A DNA stretch of 64,000 nucleotides from Thermoanaerobaculia bacterium. GTDB taxonomy: Bacteria > Acidobacteriota > Thermoanaerobaculia > Multivoradales > UBA5704. Made by a program: the position numbers and the translations under genes. Location: the NCBI GenBank assembly GCA_044226625.1, contig JBGAGQ010000018.1, positions 1 to 64,000 on the forward strand, read 5' to 3'. The notes beneath the pieces are model-generated. The model did not search any database and was not told where the DNA came from. It saw only the letters and a program-made list of their open reading frames with translations. Below are positions 3,697-32,497 of the stretch, in pieces. The stretch's first letter is position 1; each line of letters starts with the position of its first letter.

Positions 3697-6150
3697 TCAC
3701 TCCGCCCGGAGAACGCGACTCGGATCCATCCCGGCGGCTCGCCGGGCAGGAAAGAAGCTCGCGAGGAACGCGACCAGCGAAAGGAGCGCCGAGGTACCCA
3801 GGAGGGCCACCGGGTCGGCGGCCGGGACGCCGTAGAGCAGGCTCTGCGCGAAGTGTCCGACGGTCGTGCCCAGTCCGACCCCCGCGAGCAGGCCGATGCC
3901 GACGATCCAGAGCGCCTGGACCAGGATCAACCGGAGGACGGAGGGTGATCCCGCGCCGAGCGCCATGCGGATTCCGATCTCGCGTTGGCGAGCGCCGACC
4001 GCGAACGACATGACGCCATAGAGGCCGACCGCCGCGAGGACCAGCGCGAGGCCGCCGAAGAGCGCGAGCAGGAAGGCGCCCGCCTCGGGCGCCCAGAGGG
4101 AATCGGCGAGGAGGCGGCGAACCGGCTTCGCGACGGTGATCGGGAGATTGGGGTCGAAGGCATGGATCTCGCGCTCGACCGTGGAGACCAGGGAGAGCGG
4201 ATCGCCGGCGGTGCGGGCGAGCAGGGTGATCCCGCTCGCGTAGCGCTGCTCGTTCGGCACGTAGAGATAAGGCTGCGGATCTTCCCCCAGGGCGTTGTAT
4301 TTCGCGTCGCGGGCGATGCCCACGACTTCCGTCGGAGCGGTGTCGCCGTAGAAGCGGAAACGTTGGCCGATCGCGGAGGCGCCCGGCCAGAAGGTCTTCG
4401 CCATCGTCGCGTTGACGATCGCGACCGAGGCGCCGCCTTGTCGATCGGCCGACGTGAACGGCCGCCCGGCCGTGAGCGGTAGTCCGAGGGTCGCGAAATA
4501 GCCGGGGCCGATGCCGTTGACTTGAACCAGGGTCCCGCTCTTCTCGTTCTCTTGGCCCTCCAGGAAGACCGAACGGGCGAACGAGCCCTGCATCGGCCCC
4601 GCCTGGGCGACGGCGACCTCTTCGACGCCGGGCAGGGATGCCACGCGATCTTCGAGAGCGTGGATCGCCAGGCGGCCGCGCGTCGGATCGAGCCCGGCGA
4701 AGCCGACGTCGACCGATACCGCGAGCAGGCGGTCGACGGGATACCCGGGGTCGATCCGGCTGGCCGCGCCGAGCGAGCGGAGGAAAAGTCCTGCCGCGAT
4801 GAGGGCGGTGAGCGACAGGGCCACCTGCGCGGCCACCAGCGCGCCGCGGAGCCCCATGCGCCTCCCTGCCGCCGCCTGGGCGTTCGAGGCTCCCTTGAGC
4901 GCCGAGACCATCTCGGGCTTGACCGACGCGAGCGCCGGAGCGAGACCGAACAGCAACCCGGTGAGCAGCGCCACCGCGAGGGTGAACAGCAACACGCGCG
5001 GATCGAGCTCCAGCCCGAGGGCGGGGGTGACCGGGAACGGGAGCCTCGGCAACAGCGCCGCGAGACCGCGTTGCGCCCAGAGAGCGAGCAGGAGGCCGAA
5101 GGCGCCACCCAGGAGGGCGAGCACCAGGCTCTCGGTCATCAGCTGGCGGATCAGGCGGGCTCGCCCCGCCCCTTGCGAAAGCCGGATCGCGATCTCCCGT
5201 CGGCGCGCCGACGCCCGCGCGAGCAGCAGGTTCGCGACGTTCGCGCAGGCGATCAGCAGGACGATCCCGACGATCGAGAGGAGGAGGATCGAGGAGGCGA
5301 CCACGCCTTGCCGTCCGTTGCCGGGAAGCGTCGCCTCAGCGACCGGCGTCACTTCGACGCTGCGTCCTTTGTTGTCGTCCGGGTAGTCGCGCTCGAGGCG
5401 CGCCATGATCGATTTGAGATCGGCGCGCGCCTGGGCGACCGTCGCCCCCGGTTTGAGCTTGCCGATGCCGAAAATCGCGAGGCCCCGGCGCTCCTCGTAC
5501 CAGTTGAGGTCGGGGTTCGGCCGCAGGACCGCGTTCATCGCCATCGGCACCCAGAGCTCCGGCTGCACGCCGACGAACGGTCCCTGGAACCAGGAGGGGG
5601 CGATCCCGATCACGCTGAACGGCGTCCCGTTGATGCGGAGGGTGGCGCCGACCGCGGAAGGATCGGCTCCCATCCGACGCCGCCAGAAGGCGTCGGAGAT
5701 GACGGCGACCGGATGGGCCCCCGGCGCTCCGTCCTCCCCTGGGACGAACGTCCGTCCCCGCTCGGCGCGCACCGAGAGGAGATCGAAGTAGTCACCCGGC
5801 ACCATCTGCCCCACCAAGACTTCCGGGTCGCCCGTGGTGGCGACGCTCATCGGCGTCCAGTCGTAGCCGACCAGCCCGTCGAGCGTTCGGTTCTGGGCCC
5901 GCAGGTCCTTCCAGTTGAGATGGGAGAGGGGAGCCTTGCCGGGGTTCTTGGCGTCGACGGTCGAGATCGCGATCAGGCGGTCCACCTCCCGGAGGGGCAG
6001 CGGCCGCAGGAGGAGGGCGTCCACCAGGGAGAAGATCGTGGCGTTGGCGCCGATGCCGAGGGCGAGCGACAGGAGGGCGGCCACCGTGAAGCCGGGCCGG
6101 GCGCGCAACATTCGGAGCGCGAAGCGGACGTCGTGCGCGAGTCGGTCCAT
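3697..6150 (-). CDS. ADOP-family duplicated MacB/FtsX-type ABC permease
   Basis: DVRFALRML..PGFT..LALGIGANATIFS, LLIACANVANLLLAR, REIGIRMALGA; two MacB-PCD/FtsX repeats in 817 aa. Confidence 0.9.
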   Translation of the reverse strand: MDRLAHDVRFALRMLRARPGFTVAALLSLALGIGANATIFSLVDALLLRPLPLREVDRLIAISTVDAKNPGKAPLSHLNWKDLRAQNRTLDGLVGYDWTPMSVATTGDPEVLVGQMVPGDYFDLLSVRAERGRTFVPGEDGAPGAHPVAVISDAFWRRRMGADPSAVGATLRINGTPFSVIGIAPSWFQGPFVGVQPELWVPMAMNAVLRPNPDLNWYEERRGLAIFGIGKLKPGATVAQARADLKSIMARLERDYPDDNKGRSVEVTPVAEATLPGNGRQGVVASSILLLSIVGIVLLIACANVANLLLARASARRREIAIRLSQGAGRARLIRQLMTESLVLALLGGAFGLLLALWAQRGLAALLPRLPFPVTPALGLELDPRVLLFTLAVALLTGLLFGLAPALASVKPEMVSALKGASNAQAAAGRRMGLRGALVAAQVALSLTALIAAGLFLRSLGAASRIDPGYPVDRLLAVSVDVGFAGLDPTRGRLAIHALEDRVASLPGVEEVAVAQAGPMQGSFARSVFLEGQENEKSGTLVQVNGIGPGYFATLGLPLTAGRPFTSADRQGGASVAIVNATMAKTFWPGASAIGQRFRFYGDTAPTEVVGIARDAKYNALGEDPQPYLYVPNEQRYASGITLLARTAGDPLSLVSTVEREIHAFDPNLPITVAKPVRRLLADSLWAPEAGAFLLALFGGLALVLAAVGLYGVMSFAVGARQREIGIRMALGAGSPSVLRLILVQALWIVGIGLLAGVGLGTTVGHFAQSLLYGVPAADPVALLGTSALLSLVAFLASFFPARRAAGMDPSRVLRAE

Positions 6151-6293
6151 GGGGGCCTCCCGGGGCTGGGTTCTCCTCTGATTACGCCGGAGTGGCGGGG
6201 AGGTTACACATTTCTTCTCGAGGGGTGTCCAAAAAAGAACGCGAGCGGCAACCTTCTCTTGAGGAAAAAAAAGCGCTTCCCTTGTGAACGGCG

Positions 6294-7256
6294 ATGCCTA
6301 ACCCCCGTACTCTCGAATCGTTTTCGGACTCCCGCCCCGTTCGACGCGCGCCAAGCCGGTCCTATGGCGAGGCGAGCCCGGCGCTCTACGATCAGGCGTT
6401 CAACCGTGCGGGCGAGGTGCTCGCCGCCTGTTGGCTTCGCCTGGAGGGGGAGCGGAGCGACGCCGTCGGCCAGATCGCCCGGCTGCTCGATCTGCCCGCC
6501 GGGCAGCGCGGGCTGTTGGTGCGCAACAGCGAACGGTTGCGGACCTGGGGCGTCCTCGAGCGCTTGGTCGGTGCGGGTCGCAAGGCGCTCGCCGCGGAGC
6601 CGCCCGATCCTACGGCCGCCGAAGACCTGGCCTCGCTCGCCCTCGAGCTCGCCTCGGCGATCGATCCGGCGGTCTACCCGGACACCCATCGAATGGACCT
6701 CGAGGCGCGCGCTTGGGGTTGCCGCGCGCGAGCCCGGCAGCTCGCCGGCGACCTCGGAGGCGCCGAAGAAGCGCTGGAGACGGCCTACCGCCGCCTGCTC
6801 CAAGGGTCGCGCGACGGCTGGGAGCGGGCGGTGTGGTTGGAGCTCAAGTCGGGGCTGCGCCGGGCGCAAGGCCGTCTCCACGAAGCCGAGGCGACGCTTC
6901 GCCGCGCGACCGCGATCTTCCGCGAGATCGGCGACGACCGTCGGGCGGCGCGTTGTCTCACGGGTCTCGGCGAGGTGCATCGGCGGCTCGGACGTCCGAA
7001 GACCGCGGTGAGCTACACCGGGCAGGCGGTCGCCCTGTTGCGGGGCCATGAACCGGCGCCTCTCGCCGAGGCGTTGCGCGCGCAGCTCGCTTCGCTCTCC
7101 TCGGCCGGTCGGTGGTTCGAGGCGGGGCGAGTCTTCGCCGAGCTTTCGAGCCTCGCCCGGCGGCATCCCCAGCTCGGCATTCCGTTGGCCGACCTGCGGC
7201 CTCTGACGACGCCCGTCGCGTCGCCATCGCCGACCTCTCGCGCCCTGGTAGAGTAG
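6294..7256 (+). CDS. TPR-like helical repeat protein
   Basis: Ala/Leu-rich helical repeats (GDLGGAEEAL, QGRLHEAEATLRRA, LGEVHRRLGRPKTA). Confidence 0.6.
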   Translation: MPNPRTLESFSDSRPVRRAPSRSYGEASPALYDQAFNRAGEVLAACWLRLEGERSDAVGQIARLLDLPAGQRGLLVRNSERLRTWGVLERLVGAGRKALAAEPPDPTAAEDLASLALELASAIDPAVYPDTHRMDLEARAWGCRARARQLAGDLGGAEEALETAYRRLLQGSRDGWERAVWLELKSGLRRAQGRLHEAEATLRRATAIFREIGDDRRAARCLTGLGEVHRRLGRPKTAVSYTGQAVALLRGHEPAPLAEALRAQLASLSSAGRWFEAGRVFAELSSLARRHPQLGIPLADLRPLTTPVASPSPTSRALVE

Positions 7257-16981: not shown

Positions 16982-18724
16982 TTACCGCGCCGCCCGGAGC
17001 TGGCCGCGGACGGCGGCAAGGTCTAAGGCGATGGGCGGCTCGGCGCGGAGGGCTTCGTCGAGAGTTTCGTCGTGACCGTAGATGTCCTTGCGGAATTGAA
17101 TCTGGCCGTCGTCGGAGACCCAGGCGGTCCAGTAGAGGATGTGGACCGGTATCGGGCGGGGTAGACGAACGGAGCGCGTCTCTCCGGTCGCGATCTCCTG
17201 CTGAAGCTTCTCGGGGCGCTGGCTCGAATCGTCTCGCAAGAGGTAGGAGGCGAGCTCGAACGGCTTCTCGAGCCGGACGCAACCGTGGCTGAAGTCGCGC
17301 TCTTCGCGGGCGAAGAGGTGATCGGCCGGCGTGTCGTGGAGATAGACGTCGAAGCGGTTGGGGAACATGAACTTGATCTTGCCGAGGGGATTGTCTTCCC
17401 CGGAGCGAGCCCGTAGGCGCACGTCCGAGCCGGCGACGCCGACTTCCGAAATCTCCGCGGGGTCGAGGACTTCGGCATCTTCGTCCCAGCCGCGTACGAC
17501 CTCGATTCCCTTCGAGGCGAGATAGTCGGGGTTCCGCGCGACCGCCGGCATCACCTCTTCACGGGCGATCTTCTCGGGGATGTTCCAGGTCGGATTCAGT
17601 ACCAGGTAGGTCATCCGGCCGCTGAAGCTTGGGGTGCGGCTCTGCTCCTTGCCGACCACAACCCGCTGCGCGTGGACGACGCGGCCCCCTTCGACCACCT
17701 CCAGGCGGAAATCGGGGACGTTGACCTTGATGTAGCGATCGCCCAGGTCGCGCGGCATCCAGCGCCAGCGCTCCATGTTGTCGGTGATCTGACGGATTCG
17801 GCCCTCGACGGGGACGTTCATCGCTTCGAGCGTTCCGGCGTCCATCGTTCCCGTGGGATCGAGGCCGTGTCGGCTTTGGAAGTGGGCGATCGCCTGAGCC
17901 AGCGCGCCGTCGGCTAGAGGAGCCTCCGATTGGGCTAGGTCTCCGGACGCGGCGAGGCGCGCGCGAAGCGCCGCGGCCACGGCGGGCTCGAAGCGTCCCT
18001 TCTTGGCATGGAGCGCCTCCTCGGGAACCGTCGGCCATCCTCCCGAGCGCGCGATCTCGCGGAGCTGCGCTAGGGCATCGCGCAAACGTCCGTATTCCGG
18101 TTGCGATGGGACAAGGCCGAGCAACGCCCGATCGAGGTTGCCCGGCTGCTCGAGCATTTTGGCGAGAAGCTTGTCGAGGTCGATCCGCCGAGCCTCGCGA
18201 TACCACTCGACGTCGACCTCGCTCGGCCGCTCGCGACCCACCGCGAGATGCTGCGCGAGAGTCATGAACGTGTAGGTCAGCGTGAGATCGAGATCGGCGA
18301 GCCGCTGCTGCGTTTCGGGGGCGTCGAGCGATCGGGTCTTCTCGGCTTGGTCGAGCAGCTCTTCGAGACGATCGGCCCCGTAGCGGCGCGGGTCGATGCC
18401 TTCGCGCCCGGCAGGGCCGATCGCGGTGACCAGCTCCCTCGCTTGGGGCAGAGGTCCCTTGGGACCGAGCCAAACCGGCTGGAAGCCGCGCCGTCGATAG
18501 AAGTCGCGGACCTCACGCCATGCTTCCGCGCGCTCCGGCTCGCGTCGCGCCTCGGCGGGCATGACGGTCGATTCCACGGTCGCATGGAGAAGGGCCGGCA
18601 CCTCGGGCGGCATCTCCTTTGGGCGGCAGCCCGCGCCGCCAGCCCATAGGCCCAAGATCAAGAGAGAAGCAGCCTGCCACCGAGCCCGCTCGAGAATCGC
18701 CCCGCTCAGCGATCGAAATTTCAT
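16982..18724 (-). CDS. L,D-transpeptidase, YcbB/LdtD-like (scaffold + PG-binding + YkuD domains)
   Basis: FQSRHGL, NMERWRW, NPTWNIP, NPLGKIKFMFPN, YLHDTP, SHGCVR; ATG 18724 preceded by GGAGGG. Confidence 0.9.
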   Translation of the reverse strand: MKFRSLSGAILERARWQAASLLILGLWAGGAGCRPKEMPPEVPALLHATVESTVMPAEARREPERAEAWREVRDFYRRRGFQPVWLGPKGPLPQARELVTAIGPAGREGIDPRRYGADRLEELLDQAEKTRSLDAPETQQRLADLDLTLTYTFMTLAQHLAVGRERPSEVDVEWYREARRIDLDKLLAKMLEQPGNLDRALLGLVPSQPEYGRLRDALAQLREIARSGGWPTVPEEALHAKKGRFEPAVAAALRARLAASGDLAQSEAPLADGALAQAIAHFQSRHGLDPTGTMDAGTLEAMNVPVEGRIRQITDNMERWRWMPRDLGDRYIKVNVPDFRLEVVEGGRVVHAQRVVVGKEQSRTPSFSGRMTYLVLNPTWNIPEKIAREEVMPAVARNPDYLASKGIEVVRGWDEDAEVLDPAEISEVGVAGSDVRLRARSGEDNPLGKIKFMFPNRFDVYLHDTPADHLFAREERDFSHGCVRLEKPFELASYLLRDDSSQRPEKLQQEIATGETRSVRLPRPIPVHILYWTAWVSDDGQIQFRKDIYGHDETLDEALRAEPPIALDLAAVRGQLRAAR

Positions 18725-18880
18725 CTTCGTACCCTCCCGCCGGGGCCAGAGGGCAAGAGGTGTGCCGGGCTTCTCGGTAGGAAAGGCACGGTGCCCGTCC
18801 GTCCCCGCAGGAAACAATTTCCGGAGGGTTCTCGATTCGGCGGCCGTTTTCTGCAGCGGTTCTCGGGCTCTTTGTCGGCC

Positions 18881-19477
18881 CTACGTCGAGCCGACGGGCC
18901 GCCATTCCTCCCGATCGGTCACGACCACCGTCATCGGAACGTCGTGTGCCTCGTCCGGAAGCCGATCGAGGAGCTGTACGTCGTAGCCAAGACCGACAGA
19001 CGGGAAAGGGCGATCGCGGAGGAATCGGTCGAAGTAGCCGCTGCCGTAGCCAAGCCGAAATCCGCGGCGGTCGTATCCCAGGCCGAGAACGAGCACCGCG
19101 TCGAGAGTCGAATCGATCGATCGCTCCTCGACCTCGGGAGCCCCGCGCGGCGGCTGCTTCAAACCGAAAGCGAGCGTTCGCAGGGGGCAGGGGTAGGGAT
19201 GGACGTGGAGCTTGCCGTCGCGTGGGTCCGCGCGGGGCACGAACAACTCGTGCCCCGAGGCGAGCAGGTGCTCGGAGAGCTTCCAGGTGTCGATCTCGGA
19301 CCCGAACGAGAGACAGGTGAGGATACGCCGGGCGCTCGCGATCTCGGGGAGGGTGAGCACCCTCTCCGCGACCCGATCGGCGGCGGTGGCGGCCACCGTC
19401 GGCTCGATCGAGGAGACGGCCTCACGGAGCCGCTCGCGCAGCTCCGGTTTGGTCGGGGATTCCGCCGTTTCCAGCAA
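18881..19477 (-). CDS. 5-formyltetrahydrofolate cyclo-ligase
   Basis: SEIDT, FGLKQP, GFRLGYGSGYFDRFL, HDVPM..VVT. Confidence 0.9.
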   Translation of the reverse strand: MLETAESPTKPELRERLREAVSSIEPTVAATAADRVAERVLTLPEIASARRILTCLSFGSEIDTWKLSEHLLASGHELFVPRADPRDGKLHVHPYPCPLRTLAFGLKQPPRGAPEVEERSIDSTLDAVLVLGLGYDRRGFRLGYGSGYFDRFLRDRPFPSVGLGYDVQLLDRLPDEAHDVPMTVVVTDREEWRPVGST

Positions 19478-19496
19478 ATCGGTCGAGGAAGGCCCG

Positions 19497-20153
19497 TCAG
19501 GCGCTCGGAGGGCTCGTCGGCGGAGGGGTAGCCGGCGGGGGGCTCGCGGGGGGGGGAGTTTCCGGCTCGTCGCTCTTGGCCGGGAGGACGCGGATGGCCA
19601 CCTTGGACTTGTCCTTGTCTTCGCGGTACTCGACGGTGACCCGAAGACCGGCCACGAGGGGTTTGACCAGGTATTCGGTCGAGGGCAGAAGGAAGAAGGT
19701 GACGTCCCCGTCGGGCGTGTGCAGGACGAGCGTCGCGTCGCTCGCCGAGACGATCTCGCCCGTCGCCATGTAGGTCTGGACCATCGGGGCGGGAACCGGC
19801 TCAGCGGCGGGCGCTTGGCCGGCGGCGTAGATCTTTTCGGCCAGGATGAAGGTGCCGATCTTCCGGTGGAACTCGACGGTGATCGCGACGCCTTTGGCGA
19901 TCTCCACGTTCTTCTCGGTCGACTCGGTGACGCCGACCTTCTGGTCCTTGCCGTCCTCGGTTCGAAGCTCGATCTCGTCGTTGACGAACCGGGTTACCGT
20001 CCCGGTGACCTTCGAGGCCGAAGCTGGCGAGGGAGCGGGTTGCGTACCGGGCGGCGCCTCTCCGCTCTGGGCGCGAGCGCCGGGCGCGGCGGCGAGACAG
20101 AAGATTGCGAGCAGAGTGGAGAGAAAGACGAGGCGAGGTTCTGGAAACTTCAT
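19497..20153 (-). CDS. Exported protein with two tandem OB-fold-like (DUF5666-like) repeats
   Basis: Signal peptide from ATG 20153; repeats VTGTVT..G.AITVEF..A.KI and ATGEIV..GLRVTVEY..A.RV; Pro-rich tail. Confidence 0.6.
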   Translation of the reverse strand: MKFPEPRLVFLSTLLAIFCLAAAPGARAQSGEAPPGTQPAPSPASASKVTGTVTRFVNDEIELRTEDGKDQKVGVTESTEKNVEIAKGVAITVEFHRKIGTFILAEKIYAAGQAPAAEPVPAPMVQTYMATGEIVSASDATLVLHTPDGDVTFFLLPSTEYLVKPLVAGLRVTVEYREDKDKSKVAIRVLPAKSDEPETPPPASPPPATPPPTSPPSA

Positions 20154-20313
20154 GGAGGCACCTCCAATCGATCGGGCGAAGGCCGGCGTCCGGCTCGAGT
20201 CGAGCATACCGCGTCGACCGGTGGACCGCTTTCGCCCCGTCGGTGGCGTCGGACCGGGCAGGCACGCGGCTCCCCGCCTTTCGGCGCCTCGCGGCCAGTA
20301 CTGAAGGACGCTA

Positions 20314-22002
20314 TCAGCGCGCGAGCGCCGATTGGACCTCTCGCCAGCTCGACGCGGCGGCCAGGGCGTTGCGCCGCGTCGGGTCCTTGGCGAGGCGGGC
20401 GATCTCGGAGAGGAGGGTGAGGCAACCTTCCGGCCGCTCCTCGGGGCAGAGCAGCAGGAACATCAACTCGACCGTCGATTCGCCCCCGGCGGGGGAGCGG
20501 AGGACGGCCAGCGCGAGCCGCGGCTCGCTGAGGCCGGGAATCCGCGCGTGGGGGACCGCGATCCCTTCTCCGAGATAGGTCGAGGCTTCTCGTTCGCGCA
20601 GCTCGAGGTGGCGGAGCACGTCGGAAGGATCCAGTCGGGTCCCGGCGAGCAGCGGTTCGAGGAGGCGTTCCATCAGCTCCCCGCGTGAAAGCGCTTCGCG
20701 CAGGAAGAACGTTCGTTCCGGCCGAAGAATCTCGGCGAGGCGGCCCACGGCGCGCCGTGGATTGGCGAGCGGCGGCGCAGCCCCAGCGGCCGCCGGCCGC
20801 TCCACCCCCTCGGCGGGCCGCTCGGCGAGATGGGCCATCTCGGCCTGCTGGGCCCATTCCGCCGGATGCGGAGACGGCGCTTCCTCCGCCGGAGCAACGG
20901 CGGGGTCGACGACCACCACGGCGAGCCCCGAGGCGCGGACGAGGAGGGTGTCGACGAGCGAAGGTCGGAGGAAGCGAAGGATGCCTTTCCTCGGCGTCGA
21001 GCGGCCGATCACGACGTGGCCGGCGCGGACTTCGCGGGCGAAGCGGAGGATCGTCTCGACCACGTCGTCGCCTCGAAACGTGAAGACGGTCGCGCCCAGC
21101 TGGCGCGCGAGCTCGAGCGTTTCGGCCAGCCGGGCTTCCGTTTCCGGCTCGAGCTGTCGCTCGGCGGAGGTGCGGACGTAGAGCGCGTACCAATTGCGGT
21201 CGAGCTTGCCCGCGAGACGAGAGGCGTAACGGAGAAGGGCGTCGGCACTCGGGCTCTTCGACGAGAGGCAGGCGACGACCTGGTCGGGCGCTTCGACGGA
21301 CGTACCCTCCGAGCGGCCTCGGCGCTCCAGCACGGACGCCGCCTCGCGAAGCGCGAGCTCGCGCAGCTGCTCGAGGGGCCGGGTACGAAAGAAGTTCTGG
21401 AGCGCGGCCGCCGCCCGTTCCGGTGGGTAGATCCGCCCCTCCTCGAGGCGTCGTCGCAGATCCTCGGCGGCGAGGTCGACGTTGACGACCTGATCGGCCT
21501 CGGCGAGCACCCAGTCGGGAATCCGTTCCTTGACCTTCACTCCCACCAGCCGCTCGACCGTGTCGTACAAGCTTTCGAGGTGCTGGATGTTGAGGGTGGT
21601 GATCACATGGATCCCCGCGGCGAGCAGGTCCTGGACGTCGAGGTAGCGCTTGGGATGAACGCTGCCCGGCGCGTTGGTGTGCGCGAGCTCGTCGACCAGC
21701 ACCACCTCGGGCTTCCGTTCGAGGATCGCGGCGAGGTCCATCTCCTGGAGCTTCACCCCACGGTAGGTGATCTCTCGCGGGGGAACGGCGTCGAGCCCGA
21801 GGACCAGTGAGGCGGTGTCGGCACGCCCATGGGTCTCGACCACGCCGATCTCGACGTCGATCCCTTGCGCTTTCAAACGGTGCCCCTCGAGCAGCATCTG
21901 GTAGGTCTTGCCGACCCCGGGGCCGTAGCCCAGGTAGACCTTGAGCCGACCGCGCCGCGCGCGGTGGATCAGCCGGAGGAAGCTCTCGGGGCTCTGGGGC
22001 AT
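20314..22002 (-). CDS. kdpD: KdpD N-terminal sensor domain + USP domain + PTS EIIA domain; no TM or kinase domain
   Basis: GRLKVYLGYGPGVGKTYQML, VETHGR, LVDELAHTN, TTLNIQHLESL; USP-like segment; C-terminal REREASTYLGEGIAVPHAR (EIIA phospho-His motif). Confidence 0.88.
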   Translation of the reverse strand: MPQSPESFLRLIHRARRGRLKVYLGYGPGVGKTYQMLLEGHRLKAQGIDVEIGVVETHGRADTASLVLGLDAVPPREITYRGVKLQEMDLAAILERKPEVVLVDELAHTNAPGSVHPKRYLDVQDLLAAGIHVITTLNIQHLESLYDTVERLVGVKVKERIPDWVLAEADQVVNVDLAAEDLRRRLEEGRIYPPERAAAALQNFFRTRPLEQLRELALREAASVLERRGRSEGTSVEAPDQVVACLSSKSPSADALLRYASRLAGKLDRNWYALYVRTSAERQLEPETEARLAETLELARQLGATVFTFRGDDVVETILRFAREVRAGHVVIGRSTPRKGILRFLRPSLVDTLLVRASGLAVVVVDPAVAPAEEAPSPHPAEWAQQAEMAHLAERPAEGVERPAAAGAAPPLANPRRAVGRLAEILRPERTFFLREALSRGELMERLLEPLLAGTRLDPSDVLRHLELREREASTYLGEGIAVPHARIPGLSEPRLALAVLRSPAGGESTVELMFLLLCPEERPEGCLTLLSEIARLAKDPTRRNALAAASSWREVQSALAR

Positions 22003-22006
22003 GGGG

Positions 22007-22606
22007 CTATTTTCGAACGTCCAAAGCGAGGTTCAACTCGAGAACGTTGACCCGCGGCTCGCCGAGCAGGCCGAAGGTACGCCCCTCGGTGTGAGCGGCG
22101 ACGATCCGGCGGACCTCGTCCTCGGAGAGTCCGCGCTCGCGCGCGACGCGCGGCAGCTGGAATTCCGCGGCCGCCGGGGTGATGTGCGGGTCCAGCCCGG
22201 AGGCCGACGCGGTGACGAGATCGACGGGCACCGCGCGATCGGCGGCGCCGTTTTCGGCTCGCGCCGCCGCGACCGCCGGGACGATCCTCTCCTCGATCAG
22301 CTTTCTGCTCGTCGGCCCGAAATTGGTGCCGGCCGAGGAGGTTCCGTCGTAACCCGCGCCCGCGGCGGACAGCCGGGAGCGGAAGTAGCCGGGCCCCGTG
22401 AAGGGTTGGCCGATCAGGCGCGAGCCGATCACCGCACCCCGTGCGTCGCGAATCAGGCTTCCCTCGGCCTGGTTCGGAAACAGCAGGCGGGCGAGGCCGG
22501 TGACGACCATGGGGTAGGCGAAACCGAGAATCGCGGTGAGCACGAGCGTCATCCGGATCGCCGGACCGAGATGCTTCCACCAGGAGGTCGAAAGGTTCTC
22601 GTTCAC
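22007..22606 (-). CDS. kdpC: K+-transporting ATPase subunit C
   Basis: [42 protein letters not shown]. Confidence 0.95.
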
Positions 22607-22616
22607 GTGAGGCTCC

Positions 22617-24755
<2,139 letters not shown>

Positions 24756-24777
24756 ATCGATCTCGGGCTCTCTTCGG

Positions 24778-26568
<1,791 letters not shown>

Positions 26569-26571
26569 GAT

Positions 26572-26661
26572 CTAGAACCTCTCCGGACGGAGCAAGGCAT
26601 ACGTCAAGTAGAGGAGGAGGCCTAGCACGATCACCGCGCCGAGCCAGAGCTCAAGGGTCAT
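26572..26661 (-). CDS. kdpF: KdpF small membrane subunit (29 aa; absent from the ORF track)
   Basis: Manual translation MTLELWLGAVIVLGLLLYLTYALLRPERF with the YLxYALxxPERF signature; SD AAAGGA. Confidence 0.9.
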   Translation of the reverse strand: MTLELWLGAVIVLGLLLYLTYALLRPERF

Positions 26662-26675
26662 AGAGACGTCCTTTC

Positions 26676-26759
26676 TCAGAGCCGGTCGGTGCCGCGGACA
26701 TAGGCGAGGCACAGGCCAAAGAAACCCAGGGTCACGACGACGAAAATCAGGTCGAGCAT
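26676..26759 (-). CDS. Small hydrophobic Kdp-associated peptide (27 aa; absent from the ORF track)
   Basis: Manual translation MLDLIFVVVTLGFFGLCLAYVRGTDRL; SD GGAGGA; directly upstream of kdpF. Confidence 0.75.
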   Translation of the reverse strand: MLDLIFVVVTLGFFGLCLAYVRGTDRL

Positions 26760-26891
26760 GGGGCGGTCCTCCGGCGGAAAGAGGTTAGAAACGCCAGGGC
26801 GGCGGTGCCCGCAATGGAACGCAAGGCGTTCATGGAGTTTCCTTTGGGAAAGCGCGGCGACGAAGGGACGCCGGCGGTGAGGTTGAGCGAC

Positions 26892-28790
26892 TCAGCCTGC
26901 GGCTGTTCCGGAAGTGGACGCCACGGGCAAGCTGAACCAGAACGTCGTCCCGGCGCCCTCTTTCGACTGGACGTGGATTTCGCCGCCGTGGGCGTGGACG
27001 ATCTCCTTGGCGATCGACAGTCCGAGGCCGGCGCCGCCGACGTCTTCGGTTCCGGGAACTTGATAGAAGCGGTCGAAAATTCGATCGAGCTGATCGGCAG
27101 GAATTCCCTTACCGGTATCGGCGACCGAGAAACGGACGTATTTCTTGTGCGCCTCGGCGCGAACGACCACGCTGCCGCCCGCAGGCGTGTGGTGAAGCGC
27201 GTTCGACAGAAGGTTCGAGAGGACCAGCCTGGCGCGCGCCGGATCGGCGAGCACCCTGGGCGCCGCAGGATCGATCTCGACCTTGAGCTCGATGCCCGCG
27301 TCCTCGAACTCGGGGCGGAATTCGTTCGTACGCGCTTCCACGAAGTCGCGGGTTGCGACCGGTTCGAGGCGTAGGAGCTGGCGGTCGGACTGAAGGCGGG
27401 ATAGCTCCAGGAGGCTCTCCACGATCTCGCGCAGGCGCTCCGCGTCGTCGCGCGCGACCATCAACAGCTCCGTCTGCTCCTTGTTGAGCTCTCCGAGCTT
27501 TTCGCCGAGCAGAACGTGGACCGCCATCTGGAGCGAGGTCAACGGCGTTCGCAGCTCATGGGAGACGGTGGACAGGAGTCCGCTCTTCATCTCGTCGACC
27601 CGGCGCAAATCGGTGACGTCCGAGAGGATCAGGGTGGTCCCTTGCAGGCGCCCCTCCGCGTCGCGGATCGCCACGGCGTGAGGCAGGAAGAAATTCTCCT
27701 TGCCCTCTTTCCAGACTTGGATCGCCGCCTCGAAACCGCGTTCGGGTGGGGTGCCGAAACGACCCGCGAGATCCGCGGCATGATCGACGGTGGCGAGCAG
27801 GGGCCTCAGCCACTGGCTATGACGTTCGGGGATCGGCGCTCCCGGCGCCAGACCGAAGTCTGAAATCGCCGTACGGTTCGCCAGCTCGATCCCGCCCTCC
27901 GGCGATAGGAGCGCCACCGCGTCGGGAAGGCTGTCGATCGCGAGCTGGGAAGTCTGTTGCGCCCGGAGGAGCTTCGCCTGATCGGAGCGGCGCAACTCGC
28001 GAAGGCTGCTCGCCATGGCGTTGAACGCCTCCGCGAGTTGCCCGAGCTCGTCGCGTGAAGGTACCGGAACCACGAGATCCAGGTGTCCGCGCTCGATCTC
28101 GCGGGCCGATTCGGTGAGCCGGCCGAGCGGACCGAGGATCGCCCGAGAAAGAAAGGCGACGAGGCCGATCGCCAGCGCCGCGCCGGCTGCGAGAAGCAGA
28201 ACCATCCGGTGACGCGCCGAGGCCGCGAGCGCGCGAGCCCGGTCGTTCGCCTCGACCATGTTCGCCTGGTTGAGCGCCAGGATCTCCTCTGCGTTCCGCT
28301 TGATCTCTTGAAACCGGGGAAGGAGCTGAGAGAAATAGGCTCGACTCCGTTCCGTCGCGGGCCGGCCGTCGTCCAACACGAGCGGCAAGGAGGAGACGTA
28401 GGTCTGGAAGAGGTCGCGGACCCGCTCCGCGCGCTCTCGCTCCCCTTCGATCGTGATGTTGCCGAGCTCGATCTTGAGTGCCGCTTCGAATCGGGGGCGC
28501 TGGAGGTCGACCAGCGCACGGCCGCGGTCGGCGTCTCCCGCCAGGGCGAACAGGGCGCCGCTGTCGATCCGCTCGAGCGCTTCGGTCATCTGCTGCGCGG
28601 CGATCACGCTCTTGTAGTTCTCGCGCAGGATGACGTCGATCGAGCCGCCGAGCCGTTCGAGCATCGAAATGCTTTGCGCGCCGACCACGAACAGAAGCGC
28701 GAGCAGCCCGCCGAAACCGAGGGCCAGCTTCCAGCGAAGGCCGAGGCCGGAACGTGGGGTCGGGGAAGAGAACGAGGTGGAGTCGGTCAT
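26892..28790 (-). CDS. Membrane sensor histidine kinase (periplasmic helical sensor-HAMP-PAS-HisKA-HATPase), KinB-like
   Basis: Two TM segments, DELGQLAEAFN, SHELRTPLT, NLLSNA, DTGKGI, GLGLSI; start reassigned to ATG 28790 with GGAG SD. Confidence 0.9.
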   Translation of the reverse strand: MTDSTSFSSPTPRSGLGLRWKLALGFGGLLALLFVVGAQSISMLERLGGSIDVILRENYKSVIAAQQMTEALERIDSGALFALAGDADRGRALVDLQRPRFEAALKIELGNITIEGERERAERVRDLFQTYVSSLPLVLDDGRPATERSRAYFSQLLPRFQEIKRNAEEILALNQANMVEANDRARALAASARHRMVLLLAAGAALAIGLVAFLSRAILGPLGRLTESAREIERGHLDLVVPVPSRDELGQLAEAFNAMASSLRELRRSDQAKLLRAQQTSQLAIDSLPDAVALLSPEGGIELANRTAISDFGLAPGAPIPERHSQWLRPLLATVDHAADLAGRFGTPPERGFEAAIQVWKEGKENFFLPHAVAIRDAEGRLQGTTLILSDVTDLRRVDEMKSGLLSTVSHELRTPLTSLQMAVHVLLGEKLGELNKEQTELLMVARDDAERLREIVESLLELSRLQSDRQLLRLEPVATRDFVEARTNEFRPEFEDAGIELKVEIDPAAPRVLADPARARLVLSNLLSNALHHTPAGGSVVVRAEAHKKYVRFSVADTGKGIPADQLDRIFDRFYQVPGTEDVGGAGLGLSIAKEIVHAHGGEIHVQSKEGAGTTFWFSLPVASTSGTAAG

Positions 28791-28839
28791 CGGAGCTCTC
28801 CAGCTCGACCGGAGCATGGTCGAGACGCTCGAGGAAGAG

Positions 28840-28855
28840 TGCACCGCGTGTGCCA
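28840..28855 (-). promoter_or_regulatory. Putative sigma54 (-24/-12) promoter upstream of the histidine kinase/kdp genes
   Basis: Minus strand reads TGGCACACGCGGTGCA = TGGCAC-N5-GTGCA, exact GG-N10-GC spacing; adjacent to a sigma54 activator gene. Confidence 0.75.
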
Positions 28856-28928
28856 TGGTGTTCCAACGACGTATCTCTCTGATTCCACATGGATCTGCTG
28901 ATCGGCCCTGGAGAATCGCGCGGATCCG

Positions 28929-28978
28929 CGTTGCGTTCTGCAACGAGCGGCCGACGTGGAATCGTGCAATCTGCAATG
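28929..28978. promoter_or_regulatory. Candidate enhancer (UAS) pair for the sigma54 activator
   Basis: Palindrome CGTTGC-GTTCT-GCAACG and a second TGCAATCTGCAA 33 bp away; both fit TGCnnTCTGCAA. Confidence 0.5.
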
Positions 28979-29006
28979 AGGCCGGGGGTCTGGTACATTC
29001 GCCGAG

Positions 29007-30365
29007 ATGCCCACCCGAGAGAGCCGACCGCTGCTCGACATCCTGATCGTCGACGACGAGCCGAACATCCGTCGTACTCTCAGTCTGCACCTTGGAGGCG
29101 CGGGACACCGGGTGCGCGCCGCGGCGAGTGTCGGGGAGGCGCTCGTGGCCGCTCGAGAGGGACGGTTCGACCTCGCGCTGGTCGACCTGCGGCTCGGATC
29201 CGAATCGGGTCTGGACCTGATACCGCGACTGCTCGCCGAGGATCCGGCGATGAAGATCCTCGCGATCACGGCTTACGCCTCGGTCGAGACCGCGATCGAG
29301 GCGATGCGGCGGGGTGCGCGAGACTACCTGCCGAAACCCTTCACGCCGGCCGAGCTCGACCTCGCGATCGCCAAGCTGGTCGACCTCTCGCGCCTGGAGC
29401 GCAAGGTGGCGGCGCTCGAAAGCGACCTCGCCGAGGCGGAGCCCGAGCTCGAGCTCGCAAGCGAAAGCCCGGCGATGCGGGCCCTGCTCGACCTCGCGCG
29501 GCGCGCGGCCGACGGCGACGCCCGCTTGTTGATCCGCGGCGAGAGCGGCACCGGCAAAGGAGTGCTCGCGCGCGCGATCCACCGCATGAGCCCGCGGCGC
29601 AACCGGCCGTTCGTGACCGTCTCCTGCCCGTCGCTCCCCGCGGAGCTGCTCGAGAGCGAGCTGTTCGGCCACGCGAAGGGCGCCTTTACCGGCGCCACCC
29701 GCGACAGCGCGGGCCGCGTGGCGCTCGCAGAGGGAGGGACGCTCCTGCTCGACGAAATCGGCGATCTGCCGCGCAACCTCCAACCGAAGCTGCTCCGCTT
29801 CGTGCAGGACCGCGAATACGAGCGAGTGGGCGACCCGGCGACCCGGCGCGCCGACGTGCGCATCCTGGCGGCCACGAACCAGGACCTCGAGACCGCGGTG
29901 GCCGAGGGACGCTTTCGCGAAGACCTGCTCTACCGGCTCGACGTCCTGACCCTCTCGATCCCGCCGCTGCGCGATCGTCGCGAGGACGTGTTGCCGCTCG
30001 CCCGCCGGTTCCTGGCCCTCTTCGGTCGCCAGTACGGTCATCCGGGAAGCGAGTTCTCTCCCGCAGCCGAGCGCACGCTTCTCGATCACGCCTGGCCGGG
30101 CAACGTGCGCGAGCTCAAGAGCGCGGTCGAACGCGCCGCGATGCTCTCGCGGGGTGGAAAGATCGGACCCGAGCTTTTGCTGCTCAAGGGGAGCCCGGCG
30201 GCACCGGCCGGCCCGAACGTCGGCGATCTCGTGCCGCTCGCGGAGATCGAGCGCGAGCACGTCGAGCGAGTCGTGGCGCGCACGGGCTCGCTCAAGGAAG
30301 CGGCGGAGGTTCTCGGCATCGATCCGGCGACGCTTTGGCGTCGGCGTAAGACCGCTGGAGGGTAG
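29007..30365 (+). CDS. Sigma54-dependent response regulator (REC-AAA+-Fis HTH), AlgB/NtrC-like
   Basis: IVDDE, LVDLRL, GESGTGK, ESELFGH, GAFTGA, FREDLLYRL, WPGNVREL, C-terminal HTH. Confidence 0.95.
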   Translation: MPTRESRPLLDILIVDDEPNIRRTLSLHLGGAGHRVRAAASVGEALVAAREGRFDLALVDLRLGSESGLDLIPRLLAEDPAMKILAITAYASVETAIEAMRRGARDYLPKPFTPAELDLAIAKLVDLSRLERKVAALESDLAEAEPELELASESPAMRALLDLARRAADGDARLLIRGESGTGKGVLARAIHRMSPRRNRPFVTVSCPSLPAELLESELFGHAKGAFTGATRDSAGRVALAEGGTLLLDEIGDLPRNLQPKLLRFVQDREYERVGDPATRRADVRILAATNQDLETAVAEGRFREDLLYRLDVLTLSIPPLRDRREDVLPLARRFLALFGRQYGHPGSEFSPAAERTLLDHAWPGNVRELKSAVERAAMLSRGGKIGPELLLLKGSPAAPAGPNVGDLVPLAEIEREHVERVVARTGSLKEAAEVLGIDPATLWRRRKTAGG

Positions 30366-30465
30366 GACCTCACAGGAACGAGAGAGCCGCCGGTGGATCG
30401 CCGACTCTCATGCTCCGCCTGGGTGCCACGGAGGGGAGGCGGGTTCCGCGTATGATCTCGGGGCG

Positions 30466-31104
30466 ATGTTGACGCTCTACTTCCTGCGCCACGGTCAGAC
30501 GGAATTCTCGCGCGACGACACCTTTTGTGGCTCCGGTCTCGATCCCGGGCTCACCCCCGAGGGGCGGGCGATGGCCGCGGCGTTCGCGGGCGATTACGGC
30601 TCGATGCCGTGGGCGGGCATCTACGCGAGCCCGCTCCGCCGGACGATCGAAACCGCGCGCGCCCTCTGTGGCGCATGGAGGGCCGGCCTCGAGGTGCGCG
30701 ACGGTCTCAAGGAGATCGGCTACGGCGCTTGGGAGGGGAGGACCCGCGCGGAGGTCGAGCGCGACCACCACGACGACTACATCCGCTGGGAGGCCGACCC
30801 CGCTTGGAACCCCCCGACCGGCGGCGAGCGGGGGATCGTCATCGCCCGCCGGGTGGCCGAGGTGATCGAGGAGATCAAAGAGCGCCACCAGGACGGGCCC
30901 GTCCTCGTCGTCTCGCACAAGGCGACGATCCGGATCGCCCTGTGCGGTCTGCTCGGAATCGACGTGGGGCGATTCCGCTATCGCCTCGCCTGCCCGGTGG
31001 GCAGCGTCTCGATCGTCGAGTTCGGCAACAACGGTCCGCTGCTGCGGTCGCTCGCTGACCGTGCGCATCTGCCCGCGGACCTTCGGGCGCTGCCGGGAAC
31101 CTGA
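30466..31104 (+). CDS. Histidine phosphatase (phosphoglycerate mutase-like)
   Basis: LRHGQT, SPLRR, EIGYGAWEG, VVSH; start at ATG 30466. Confidence 0.9.
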   Translation: MLTLYFLRHGQTEFSRDDTFCGSGLDPGLTPEGRAMAAAFAGDYGSMPWAGIYASPLRRTIETARALCGAWRAGLEVRDGLKEIGYGAWEGRTRAEVERDHHDDYIRWEADPAWNPPTGGERGIVIARRVAEVIEEIKERHQDGPVLVVSHKATIRIALCGLLGIDVGRFRYRLACPVGSVSIVEFGNNGPLLRSLADRAHLPADLRALPGT

Positions 31105-31162
31105 CCTTGCTACACTCGGATTCCGCAGCGTCCTGATCCGCTCACCCGCCCCGGAGGTCTCG

Positions 31163-32497
31163 ATGTCGAACGACCCGAACACCCAGCGCCTCGCCCTGAT
31201 CGTCGACGACGAGCCGGGGATCTTGACCACCCTTTCCGGCATCCTCGCCGACCGGGGGTACGGCACGCTCTGCACCGCGTCCGGGAACGAGGCGATCGAC
31301 CTTTATCGGGGGCATCGCCCGGACGTCGTCTTCCTCGACATCTGGCTTCCCGATCGCGACGGCCTCGAAACGCTCCAGGCTTTGCGCGCGGACGACCCCG
31401 CCGCGGCGGTGATCATGATGTCGGGGCATGGGACGACGGCGACGGCGGTCAAGGCGATCAAGATGGGGGCCTACGACTATCTCGAGAAGCCGCTGTCGCT
31501 CCGCCGCGTGGTCGAGGCGGCCGAGGGGGCGATCGACCAGAAGCTGGCGCTTGGATTCCGGGGGACGAACGGCGAAGGCGGTGAGAGCGGGGCGACCCAC
31601 GCGGCCACGGGTCCGGATCTAGAGCGCCAGATCGCGCCGCCCCCTCCTCTTTCCCTGCTCGCGCCGTCCGGCCGGCGCCAGCGGACGATCCGCCATTCGA
31701 CGGTGATCTACGGCCTGGGCCTGCACTCGGGCGCGCGCACGGGCATGGTGATCCAGCCTCTCCCGCCCGACAGCGGCATCCATTTCTACACCCTGCCCGG
31801 GGGCCAGATGATTCCGGCTCACGTCTCGCAAGTGGCCGACACCGACTACGCCACGACGATCGGTCGCGATGGCGACAGCGTCCGCACGGTCGAGCATTTT
31901 CTGTCCGCCCTGCACGCGGCGGGGATCTCGAACCTGTTGATCAAGCTCCACGGCGAGATTCCGGTGCTCGACGGCTCGTCGGTCGAGTTTTGCCGGCTGC
32001 TCCGAGAGATCGGCGTCGAAGAGCAGGACGAGGAGCAGCAGGAGCTGGTGATCGACCGCGTCTACGAAGTGGGGAGCGGAGAAAAGAAGCTCACGCTCGA
32101 GCCGTTCGACGGCTTTTCGGCCTCGTACCGCCTGCGTTACCCGGCACCCGTAGGCGAGCAGGAGCACGAGTTCGTGCTCACGAGCTTCGAGGTTTACGAG
32201 CGCGAGATCGCCCCGGCTCGGACCTTCGGTTTCATGAAGGACCTCAAGATGATGGCCGAGCTCGGGCTCGGATCGGGCGGCCGGCTCGACAACTTCATCC
32301 TGGTCGGCGAGGACGACGTGCTGAACACGGAGCTCCGCTTCCCCGACGAGTTCGCCCGCCACAAGATTCTCGACATCGTCGGCGATCTCTACCTGCTGGG
32401 CTATCCCATTCGCGGCAAGGCCACCGCGAGCCTCACCGGCCATCGCGACAACATCGCGATGCTCAAGCAGATCTGGGCCGAGGCCGGGGCGTCGTAA
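31163..32497 (+). CDS. lpxC: Receiver domain fused to UDP-3-O-acyl-GlcNAc deacetylase LpxC
   Basis: REC: IVDDE, LDIWLP, MSGHG, EKP; LpxC: QRTI..GLGLHSG, TVEHFLSAL, EIPVLDGSS, ARTFGF, RHKILDIVGDL, GH; SD GGAGG. Confidence 0.92.
   Translation: MSNDPNTQRLALIVDDEPGILTTLSGILADRGYGTLCTASGNEAIDLYRGHRPDVVFLDIWLPDRDGLETLQALRADDPAAAVIMMSGHGTTATAVKAIKMGAYDYLEKPLSLRRVVEAAEGAIDQKLALGFRGTNGEGGESGATHAATGPDLERQIAPPPPLSLLAPSGRRQRTIRHSTVIYGLGLHSGARTGMVIQPLPPDSGIHFYTLPGGQMIPAHVSQVADTDYATTIGRDGDSVRTVEHFLSALHAAGISNLLIKLHGEIPVLDGSSVEFCRLLREIGVEEQDEEQQELVIDRVYEVGSGEKKLTLEPFDGFSASYRLRYPAPVGEQEHEFVLTSFEVYEREIAPARTFGFMKDLKMMAELGLGSGGRLDNFILVGEDDVLNTELRFPDEFARHKILDIVGDLYLLGYPIRGKATASLTGHRDNIAMLKQIWAEAGAS

Follow-up and report, generated by a model that had tools for sequence, protein, structure and literature searches.

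A KdpD N-domain–Usp–EIIA fusion protein beside a sigma-54 kinase/activator pair: predicted two-layer control of the Kdp potassium pump in a Thermoanaerobaculia bacterium

In a 64,000-nt stretch of DNA from a Thermoanaerobaculia bacterium (GCA_044226625.1, contig JBGAGQ010000018.1, positions 1 to 64,000; hereafter the window), the kdpFABC genes for the high-affinity K+ pump are followed by a gene for a soluble fusion of the KdpD N-domain (KdpD_N), a Usp domain and a PtsN-like EIIA domain of the phosphotransferase system (PTS), and preceded by the gene of a membrane-anchored histidine kinase, which diverges from the gene of an NtrC-family sigma-54 activator. The best overall explanation, to which we give somewhat better than even chances, is that these genes form a two-layer control module for the pump. 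Its transcriptional layer, a kinase–activator–sigma-54 pathway controlling the operon, is very probable in view of the comparison of related loci and of a precedent in Desulfovibrio vulgaris; its second layer, an EIIA-gated serine kinase acting on the pump itself, is a prediction that we regard as evenly balanced. The window (~68% G+C) belongs to a 6.6-Mb assembly of 133 contigs with a completeness of 97.9%, and domains were called in the region 20314–30365 using Pfam and the NCBIfam equivalog cut-offs.

The fusion gene (20314–22002, minus strand) encodes a soluble protein of 562 aa, in which Pfam delimits a KdpD domain at residues 16–223 (303.6 bits; nt 21334–21957), a Usp domain at residues 249–358 (PF00582, 26.3 bits and thus barely above the cut-off of 24; nt 20929–21258) and a PTS_EIIA_2 domain at residues 425–560 (67.6 bits; nt 20323–20730). 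No transmembrane (TM), GAF, HisKA, HATPase_c or DUF4118 domain was detected by Pfam in the 562-aa product. A preliminary description of the locus had read the gene as the KdpD N-domain plus USP without membrane or kinase part, ending in an EIIA domain with an intact histidine, and the Pfam assignments bear this out. The architecture does not represent a chance open reading frame (ORF), since the search for it that the same description had suggested recovered PF02702 together with PF00359 in 118 of the 120 best database homologues. The latter carry source names such as ‘PTS sugar transporter subunit IIA’ or ‘KdpD’, and the organisms named are Acidobacteriota, Thermoanaerobaculia and Desulfomonilaceae metagenome-assembled genomes (MAGs). 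Sequence matches in the PDB likewise divide the protein in two, the KdpD N-domain part matching 2r8r and the EIIA part the PtsN structures 3urr, 4gqx, 2a0j and 1a6j.

The KdpD N-domain has been characterized as an atypical serine kinase that phosphorylates KdpB at S162 and thereby switches the pump off (Silberberg et al. 2024, PMC11018627). The catalytic motifs of such kinases and their target motif are common to that study and the window. Walker A (G-x5-GKT; GYGPGVGKT, residues 25–33 of the fusion) is kept in 118–119 of the 120 homologues, Walker B (D-E; VDELAH, D104/E105) in all 120, and R185 (own numbering) is likewise invariant (120/120). The adenine-coordinating Trp/Arg pair of E. coli KdpD is W39/R190 (PMC11018627); the residue following GKT in the fusion is Tyr34 (119/120 homologues), as in the Pseudomonas structure 2r8r, and not Trp. 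On the side of the substrate, KdpB (22617–24755, minus strand) retains the TGES motif, which aligns with TGES of E. coli KdpB at positions 159–162 (chain 6hra_B, E = 2.2e-271), so that its serine corresponds to E. coli Ser162.

Short KdpD/Usp proteins that act post-translationally only are known, mostly from species without KdpE, and c-di-AMP stimulates the one from Deinococcus geothermalis (PMC11018627). Like the D. geothermalis protein, the fusion is a soluble KdpD_N-Usp form without a histidine-kinase part; it differs by the additional PtsN-like EIIA domain at its C-terminus. On NF007793, the NCBIfam model for full-length KdpD, the fusion reaches 344.8 bits (cut-off 1123) and aligns only to model positions 9–374, whereas on NF038185, the KdpD-like non-kinase potassium sensor, it reaches 344 bits (cut-off 550), with residues 3–365 covering positions 4–370 of the 373 in the model. 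By these scores the fusion is a relative of NF038185 with an added domain and not a scored member of that family.

The conserved histidine of the EIIA domain, His485 (codon 20548–20550), sits in the sequence GEGIAVPHARI, which aligns with GEGVAIPHGRI of solved PtsN structures (3urr, 4gqx). The best EIIA model for the domain is TIGR01419 (PtsN), with a score of 57.1 bits that lies below the equivalog cut-off of 138.7, and the domain is 31% identical to the stand-alone 149-aa PtsN of the same genome. The P-H-x-R motif (P484, H485, R487) is invariant in 120/120 homologues and also in 36/36 copies from related kdp cassettes, where the EIIA domains are 25–74% identical to each other, and 25–43% in most pairs. 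Judged from the alignments, such invariance amid low overall identity is what one would expect if the histidine were functionally phosphorylated. Potential phosphodonors are encoded in a cluster (L140; G000 contig 76, 1417–9416) comprising an LptA-like gene, rpoN, hpf, the gene of the 149-aa PtsN, hprK, rapZ and the genes of EIIA-Man, HPr and EI. Thus, a PTS phosphorelay, to which the preliminary description had linked K+ uptake, is present, with EI, HPr and stand-alone PtsN encoded beside rpoN.

A connection between PtsN and Kdp control is not without parallel. E. coli PtsN (EIIA-Ntr) acts on KdpD/KdpE (cited indirectly in PMC3162934) and reportedly binds the histidine-kinase (transmitter) half of KdpD, and a PTSNtr-KdpDE-KdpFABC pathway is said to operate in Sinorhizobium. 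Common to the E. coli system and the window is a PtsN-type EIIA carrying G-x-A-x-P-H-x-R that is tied to Kdp control. However, PtsN is a free protein in E. coli, whereas EIIA in the window forms one polypeptide with the serine-kinase/Usp half; the window's histidine kinase, moreover, is of the HAMP-PAS type and unrelated to the kinase half of E. coli KdpD.

Because the KdpD N-domain is known as a KdpB serine kinase (PMC11018627), we interpret the fusion primarily as a pump switch under control of the PTS. In this second layer, the N-domain would phosphorylate the serine in TGES of KdpB and turn the pump off, as suggested by homology and by motif conservation. The PtsN-like EIIA would occupy the place that the K+-sensing TM/GAF module has in full-length KdpD. 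HPr or NPr would phosphorylate EIIA at His485, and the state of the regulatory PTS would in this way set the serine-kinase activity. This proposal rests on the invariant P-H-x-R motif, on EI and HPr being encoded in the genome, and on where EIIA sits within the protein. That the regulatory PTS (EI to HPr/NPr) gates the protein serine kinase directly, so that the phosphostate of the fused EIIA decides on phosphorylation of KdpB and pump shut-off, we put forward more tentatively. The inputs named for KdpD forms are c-di-AMP via Usp or K+ via TM/GAF, and not the PTS (PMC11018627). In addition, the fusion may exert feedback on the sigma-54 kinase/activator pair.

The first layer begins with the sensor histidine kinase (26892–28790, minus strand; 632 aa). 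Its gene lies in a long ORF (26892–30260), the real start being the ATG at 28790, which is preceded by GGAGAG. The protein consists of a TM helix, a four-helix-bundle sensor, a second TM helix, HAMP, PAS (PAS_4), HisKA with the phosphoacceptor H411 in HELRTPL, and HATPase_c. A structural model of the first 200 residues (mean predicted local distance difference test score, pLDDT, 85.2) is all-helical and depicts a membrane-anchored four-helix bundle. Directly after the first membrane helix follows the motif SIDVILRENY-x-SV-x-A-x-x-M-x-EALERIDSG (approximately kinase residues 48–80; nt 28650–28700, minus strand), which is nearly invariant in nine orthologues that are 45–79% identical to the copy in the window. 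The divergent activator gene (29007–30365, plus strand; 452 aa) encodes a bacterial enhancer-binding protein (bEBP) composed of Response_reg (PF00072), Sigma54_activat (PF00158, 215.7 bits; GAFTGA at residue 225), AAA_lid_14 and HTH_8 (PF02954). The layout given by the preliminary description, i.e. a HAMP-PAS kinase upstream of kdpF and a divergent NtrC-type activator, is reproduced by Pfam, and no kdpE-like gene is present in the region, as had also been stated. The labels ‘KinB-like’ and ‘AlgB-like’ given there to the two proteins did not gain specific support. A search for folds similar to the sensor yielded weak matches to generic four-helix bundles (best match 4k0d with E = 0.005, none at E ≤ 0.001), among which the KinB sensor 4llc ranked 20th (E = 0.04). 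The best NCBIfam match of the activator was AtoC (371.8 bits, cut-off 714), all others likewise fell below their cut-offs, and no AlgB model was among the matches listed. As every NCBIfam equivalog stayed below cut-off, neither kinase nor activator was given a specific family name.

The region between kinase and activator genes holds a sigma-54 promoter-like element with enhancer-like palindromes upstream of it. Scanning both strands of the 64 kb for TGGCACG-N4-TTGCW with at least 10 of 12 positions matching returned only two sites, one of which is the -24/-12-like element TGGCACACGCGGTGCA (28840–28855, minus strand), which begins 65 nt ahead of the kinase start codon. Further upstream lie the palindrome TTGCAGAACGCAA (28931–28943, minus strand), which has the form TTGC-N5-GCAA and is the putative upstream activating sequence (UAS) 2, and, 33 nt away from it, the imperfect palindrome TTGCAGATTGCAC (28964–28976, minus strand), putative UAS 1. 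No sigma-70-like promoter was found in 20000–30500; terminator-like matches in this region numbered six as compared to 5.9 in shuffled sequences, and the interval from the kinase gene to kdpF is free of them. The possibility that kdpF or the 27-aa ORF preceding it has a sigma-54 or sigma-70 promoter immediately in front was also considered, and neither inspection by eye nor the scan revealed one, the promoter preceding the kinase gene instead. From the promoter and palindromes upstream of the kinase gene, and from the lack of sigma-70-like promoters in the region and of a terminator between the kinase gene and kdpF, we read kinase, mini-ORF, kdpFABC and fusion gene as one sigma-54 operon.

In the first layer, the membrane kinase would sense a signal through its four-helix-bundle domain and phosphorylate the NtrC-type activator, which would then bind the two TTGC-N5-GCAA palindromes and open the sigma-54 promoter. 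This promoter would drive the kinase gene, the 27-aa ORF, kdpFABC and the fusion gene as one operon, and the kinase/activator pair would replace the kinase half of KdpD as well as KdpE. Canonical kdpDE were indeed not found in the genome, as the whole assembly contains a single match to the KdpD domain, a single match to KdpA and no match to DUF4118, which makes up the membrane part of KdpD-type kinases. The preliminary description had named canonical kdpDE elsewhere in the genome as an observation that would speak against its model; the one KdpD_N match and the missing DUF4118 leave no sign of them, a negative that in an incomplete draft genome means ‘not found’ and is not proof of absence.

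A precedent for this type of control exists in D. vulgaris, where the regulator DVU3334 binds upstream of, and regulates, the operon to which it belongs and which includes kdpFABC (Rajeev et al. 2011, PMC3333781). The kinase was called ‘split’ in that work, DVU3336 carrying the K+ sensor and UspA domains and DVU3335 the dimerisation and phosphoacceptor domain, and an orthologue of DVU3334 was reported in Syntrophobacter fumaroxidans. DVU3334 has further been described as a GAFTGA sigma-54 regulator of DVU3339.1–DVU3337, with a promoter at -61 and the sites GTTACATTTTGTAAC and CTTTCATTTTGATAC (Kazakov et al. 2015, PMC4641369). Thus, the cluster DVU3339.1–DVU3334 resembles the window in uniting a sigma-54 NtrC-type regulator, a separate kinase, a short KdpD (KdpD_N plus Usp) and kdpFABC. 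In both clusters, a sigma-54 promoter precedes the first gene by ~60 nt and is accompanied by a pair of palindromic activator sites, which are related in shape (GTTACA-N3-TGTAAC in D. vulgaris, TTGCA-N3-TGCAA in the window). Gene orders differ, with kdpFABC, kdpD, kinase, regulator and a promoter before kdpF in D. vulgaris as compared to a leading kinase gene and a divergent regulator in the window. Moreover, the D. vulgaris short KdpD ends after Usp and lacks the EIIA domain present in the window, according to the PMC11018627 supplement, where the S. fumaroxidans protein is also listed as ‘KdpD domain, Usp domain’ and ends soon after Usp. Two further proteins with this label, from Desulfomonile tiedjei (551 residues) and Desulfobacterium (585 residues), appear in the same supplement; that of D. 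tiedjei is long enough to be a fusion like the one in the window. The terms ‘EIIA’ and ‘PTS’ were not found in the portion of the supplement searched.

Kdp systems with a split KdpD form a second group for comparison. According to the PMC11018627 supplement, 31 of the 37 Acidobacteriota listed are of this type, and two of our related loci (L068 and L072) show it, in keeping with the statement of the preliminary description that split KdpD is known elsewhere. Split systems of Acidobacteriota and cyanobacteria share with the window a KdpD N-half encoded as a protein of its own at the end of the kdp operon. In contrast to the window, which has neither a DUF4118 kinase nor KdpE, they retain a DUF4118-type (TM-GAF-DHpCA) kinase together with an OmpR-type KdpE, and a sigma-54 promoter was found in none of 21. 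The preliminary description had placed the novelty in the combination of elements. This stands for the EIIA fusion, of which we found no description in the literature searched (supplements or journals outside that search could hold one), the only paper there with both ‘PTS_EIIA_2’ and ‘KdpD’ being an unrelated Stenotrophomonas study. It does not stand for the combination of a sigma-54 activator, a separate kinase and a short KdpD, which has been published for D. vulgaris (PMC3333781, PMC4641369), so that the novelty narrows to the EIIA fusion.

To learn how widely the cassette occurs, related loci were collected by two approaches, the first starting from the fusion and the second from the kinase. 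Of 401 genomes sampled from the phylum, 165 had a KdpD_N match (a tally that includes two genomes flagged as unpublished, G152 and G024, on which nothing else presented here depends), and 12 loci with a KdpD_N protein of ~550–610 aa as well as eight with short forms were inspected. Ten of the 12 long-form loci carry, beside kdpABC, a full-length orthologue of the activator (53–86% identical) and an orthologue of the kinase (44–87%). One of the remaining two is cut by a contig end, leaving the kinase alone visible (L039). In the other (L044, genome G305), where the gene order is kdpA-kdpC-kdpB, a KdpD_N-EIIA fusion occurs alongside a kinase of the DUF4118-HisKA-HATPase type and a regulator of the OmpR type, and no bEBP was found in the stretch examined. 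The EIIA part was detected by tblastn in 11 of the 12 long-form loci, L042 being the one without it. An unfused version occurs in G045 (L049, 13875–16944), where kdpABC is followed by genes for a KdpD_N-Usp protein (417 aa), a HAMP-HisKA protein (445 aa), in which no HATPase_c domain was found, and a stand-alone EIIA_2 protein (199 aa).

For the second approach, one genome per species was scanned with an alignment of the sensor region (A1), which yielded 407 relatives, the best 80 of which were kept. These 80 all derive from MAGs, assigned to Thermoanaerobaculia, Holophagales, Aminicenantes, Desulfomonile, other Thermodesulfobacteriota, Hydrogenedentales and one Opitutaceae. Downstream of the kinase gene, kdpABC or KdpD_N was present in all 71 loci among the best 80 that could be evaluated (at least 1500 nt of downstream sequence). 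Separation of the kinase/activator pair from kdp in other genomes, which the preliminary description had regarded as a point that would refute it, was thus not observed. Across relatives from both approaches, the activator orthologues flanking the kinase are 53–87% identical.

Comparison of the promoter regions reveals a difference between the two classes of loci. With a threshold of at least 9 of 12 positions and GG and GC required, 43 of 47 bEBP-class loci, but none of 21 KdpE-class loci, showed a match to the sigma-54 promoter at a distance of 32–65 nt before the kinase start (background 0.04 per 200 nt). The four bEBP-class loci without a match include L086, which has the order bEBP-kdpABC-kinase, and L088 and L106, which have extra sequence between activator and kinase; positions further upstream were not looked at. 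Likewise, 32/47 bEBP-class loci as compared to 0/21 others contain a perfect TTGC-N5-GCAA palindrome in the 300 nt preceding the kinase gene (background 0.017 per 300 nt). Two copies are present in 11/47 bEBP-class loci, mostly at about -150 and -118, i.e. ~32 nt apart.

Among the best 80 kinase relatives, 52 loci could be judged at both ends, the other 28 being cut by contig ends or interrupted by frameshifts. A bEBP and an EIIA-fused KdpD_N are both present in 36 of the 52 and both missing from 15; one locus has a bEBP only (L125), and none has EIIA only. Loci with neither element are built differently; the two that were checked, L068 and L072, contain a DUF4118 kinase, an OmpR-type regulator, a HAMP-PAS kinase, an outer-membrane channel gene, kdpABC and a KdpD_N-Usp-DUF4118-GAF protein. 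L125, the sole bEBP-bearing judged locus without the fusion, encodes a 394-aa KdpD_N protein that lacks EIIA; after this gene, a second HAMP-PAS kinase and a regulator in which a receiver domain alone was found are encoded (17765–20334). A quick maximum-likelihood tree built from 63 kinases unites the 16 rows from complete loci that have neither bEBP nor EIIA in a single clade (Shimodaira–Hasegawa-like approximate likelihood ratio test, SH-aLRT, 100), which is nested in a 22-row clade that also holds the group of the window. Since the loci without bEBP form one clade, the 36/15 split amounts to approximately one evolutionary event rather than 51 independent observations, and we rejected the co-occurrence as statistical proof of a functional link.

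Some observations nevertheless weigh against the two-layer interpretation. The near-perfect co-occurrence of bEBP and EIIA (36 of 37 bEBP loci, 0 of 15 others) could mean that EIIA acts in the transcription arm, and the sigma-54 element of the window has GTGCA instead of TTGCA at -12. The role as a pump switch, including the effect of EIIA on serine-kinase activity and the phosphorylation of KdpB, is predicted from sequence. Furthermore, c-di-AMP could be the real input, or a second one, because the conserved patch in Usp fits published motifs and because the genome contains two matches to the diadenylate-cyclase (DAC) domain.

The co-occurrence also provides an argument for a different role of the fusion, namely that of a cytoplasmic sensor adaptor in a three-component transcription system. 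The phosphorylation state of its EIIA domain would then govern binding to the HAMP-PAS kinase (or to the activator), which would tune sigma-54-dependent kdp transcription. This is the model of the preliminary description; it is compatible with the pump switch and has an analogy in the reported interplay of free E. coli PtsN with the transmitter domain of KdpD. We nonetheless consider it rather unlikely. On the kinase tree the co-occurrence shrinks to about one event, L125 has a bEBP without EIIA, and an adaptor would have no need for the strictly conserved catalytic motifs of the serine kinase. Moreover, sigma-54 control does not require EIIA, which instead goes along with KdpD_N-Usp, since G305 combines the fusion with a KdpE-type system, and since the sigma-54 kdp cassette of D. 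vulgaris has a short KdpD without EIIA; the short KdpD of S. fumaroxidans likewise lacks it. Together with the unfused EIIA beside KdpD_N-Usp in G045, these cases tie EIIA to KdpD_N-Usp and not to the sigma-54 machinery. The co-occurrence with the bEBP speaks for the adaptor, and the evidence as a whole thus points both ways. A complex prediction for the EIIA domain and two cores of the kinase, each comprising the dimerisation/phosphoacceptor and catalytic domains (DHp-CA), gave no answer (36-row alignments A2 and A3; score 0.00) and weighs neither way.

It appears still less probable that EIIA is not a phosphoacceptor at all but a structural, dimerising or ligand-binding remnant, and that c-di-AMP regulates the short KdpD through Usp as in D. 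geothermalis. Stimulation of the latter by c-di-AMP and the two DAC matches would fit, and region I of Usp is highly conserved, including S-x-S, X20 and W-Y-A-L-Y, which resembles the motif SXS-X20-FTAXY of Staphylococcus aureus. However, the c-di-AMP type represented by S. aureus has been contrasted with an E. coli-type motif, RXXXR-X8-WXAVY (PMC4686210), and the patch fits both. A remnant is also difficult to reconcile with the invariance of P484, H485 and R487 in a domain that is otherwise mostly 25–43% identical, or with EI and HPr in the genome. Finally, the kinase/activator pair could control something else, with kdp being driven by an unrecognised OmpR-type KdpE encoded elsewhere. The targets of OmpR-family regulators are not assignable by sequence alone, and the draft consists of 133 contigs at 97.9% completeness, but no KdpD-type kinase is present as a partner (one KdpD_N match, no DUF4118), the kinase gene is the first of the kdp operon and is separated from the kdp genes by neither a promoter-like nor a terminator-like signal, linkage to kdp holds in 71/71 evaluable loci, and the sigma-54 promoter is limited to the bEBP class. 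We thus regard this last explanation as highly improbable and retain the two-layer module, with the fusion as a pump switch, as the preferred interpretation.

The remaining genes of the operon are kdpC (22007–22606, minus strand; Pfam KdpC, 239.5 bits), kdpA (24778–26568, minus strand; Pfam KdpA, 794.3 bits) and kdpF (26572–26661, minus strand), whose 29-aa product scores above the cut-offs of NF011342 (54.6 bits, cut-off 53) and TIGR02115 (39.9 bits, cut-off 26.85). Hence, the order on the minus strand is kinase gene, 27-aa ORF, kdpF, kdpA, kdpB, kdpC and fusion gene. The 27-aa ORF directly upstream of kdpF (26676–26759, minus strand) was recognized by reading the sequence and matches no NCBIfam family. 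Its product, MLDLIFVVVTLGFFGLCLAYVRGTDRL, is hydrophobic, and a hydrophobic ORF of 26–46 aa is found at the same place in 41 of 52 related loci, in both the bEBP and the KdpE class (L058–L137), with many copies ending in C-E-R-I/L. It may encode an additional small Kdp-associated membrane peptide, perhaps an unrecognised Kdp subunit, or a leader peptide.

In some relatives the cassette contains additional genes or appears broken. An OmpL-like BBP2 porin gene lies between activator and kinase in L038 (G365; 5545–7152), and a channel gene of the Phenol_MetA_deg family lies between kinase and kdpA in the KdpE-class loci L068 (11974–12771) and L072 (12183–12995). Such outer-membrane channels in kdp cassettes may provide dedicated entry routes for K+ across the outer membrane. 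The cassettes of L048, L066, L073, L105, L108 and L131 were split into many tblastn pieces, which indicates frameshifts, due either to assembly errors or to decay of the operons.

Directly downstream of the activator, within the ORF 30154–31104, the window encodes a His_Phos_1 protein (~30460–31104, plus strand). The histidine-phosphatase superfamily, to which it belongs, includes phosphohistidine phosphatases; the gene product stayed below all NCBIfam equivalog cut-offs, and no sign of a link to the PTS was seen. A further gene (31061–32497, plus strand) fuses a receiver domain (residues 46–154) to LpxC (residues 207–472; above the cut-off of TIGR00325, lpxC). L037 and L059–L061, which are close relatives, have a receiver-like match in the corresponding position. 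The domain arrangement suggests phosphorylation-controlled lipid A synthesis.

Taken together, as far as our literature searches reach, earlier descriptions are lacking for the EIIA fusion, for the spread of the cassette over several phyla, for the kinase family dedicated to kdp and for the mini-ORF. The data define a HAMP-PAS kinase family that is dedicated to kdp and has a very conserved sensor motif, as well as a conserved extra mini-ORF before kdpF, and they extend the sigma-54 promoter/enhancer architecture from the single precedent in D. vulgaris to several phyla. The fusion is carried by many uncultured Acidobacteriota (Thermoanaerobaculia, Aminicenantes), by Desulfobacterota and by single MAGs from Hydrogenedentales and Opitutaceae. 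Kdp serves as the textbook ‘simple’ two-component system. Among the outside factors that modulate K+ homeostasis, PtsN is the best known, through a mechanism that is still debated. Against this background, the covalent joining of KdpD_N, Usp and EIIA is evolutionary evidence that the PTS and the N-terminal module of KdpD work together, and since the partner of EIIA is the serine-kinase half, it suggests a concrete mechanism of post-translational pump control. If true, the fusion would represent an EIIA-controlled serine kinase, in which nature has placed the link between PtsN and Kdp on the pump itself and not on transcription alone.

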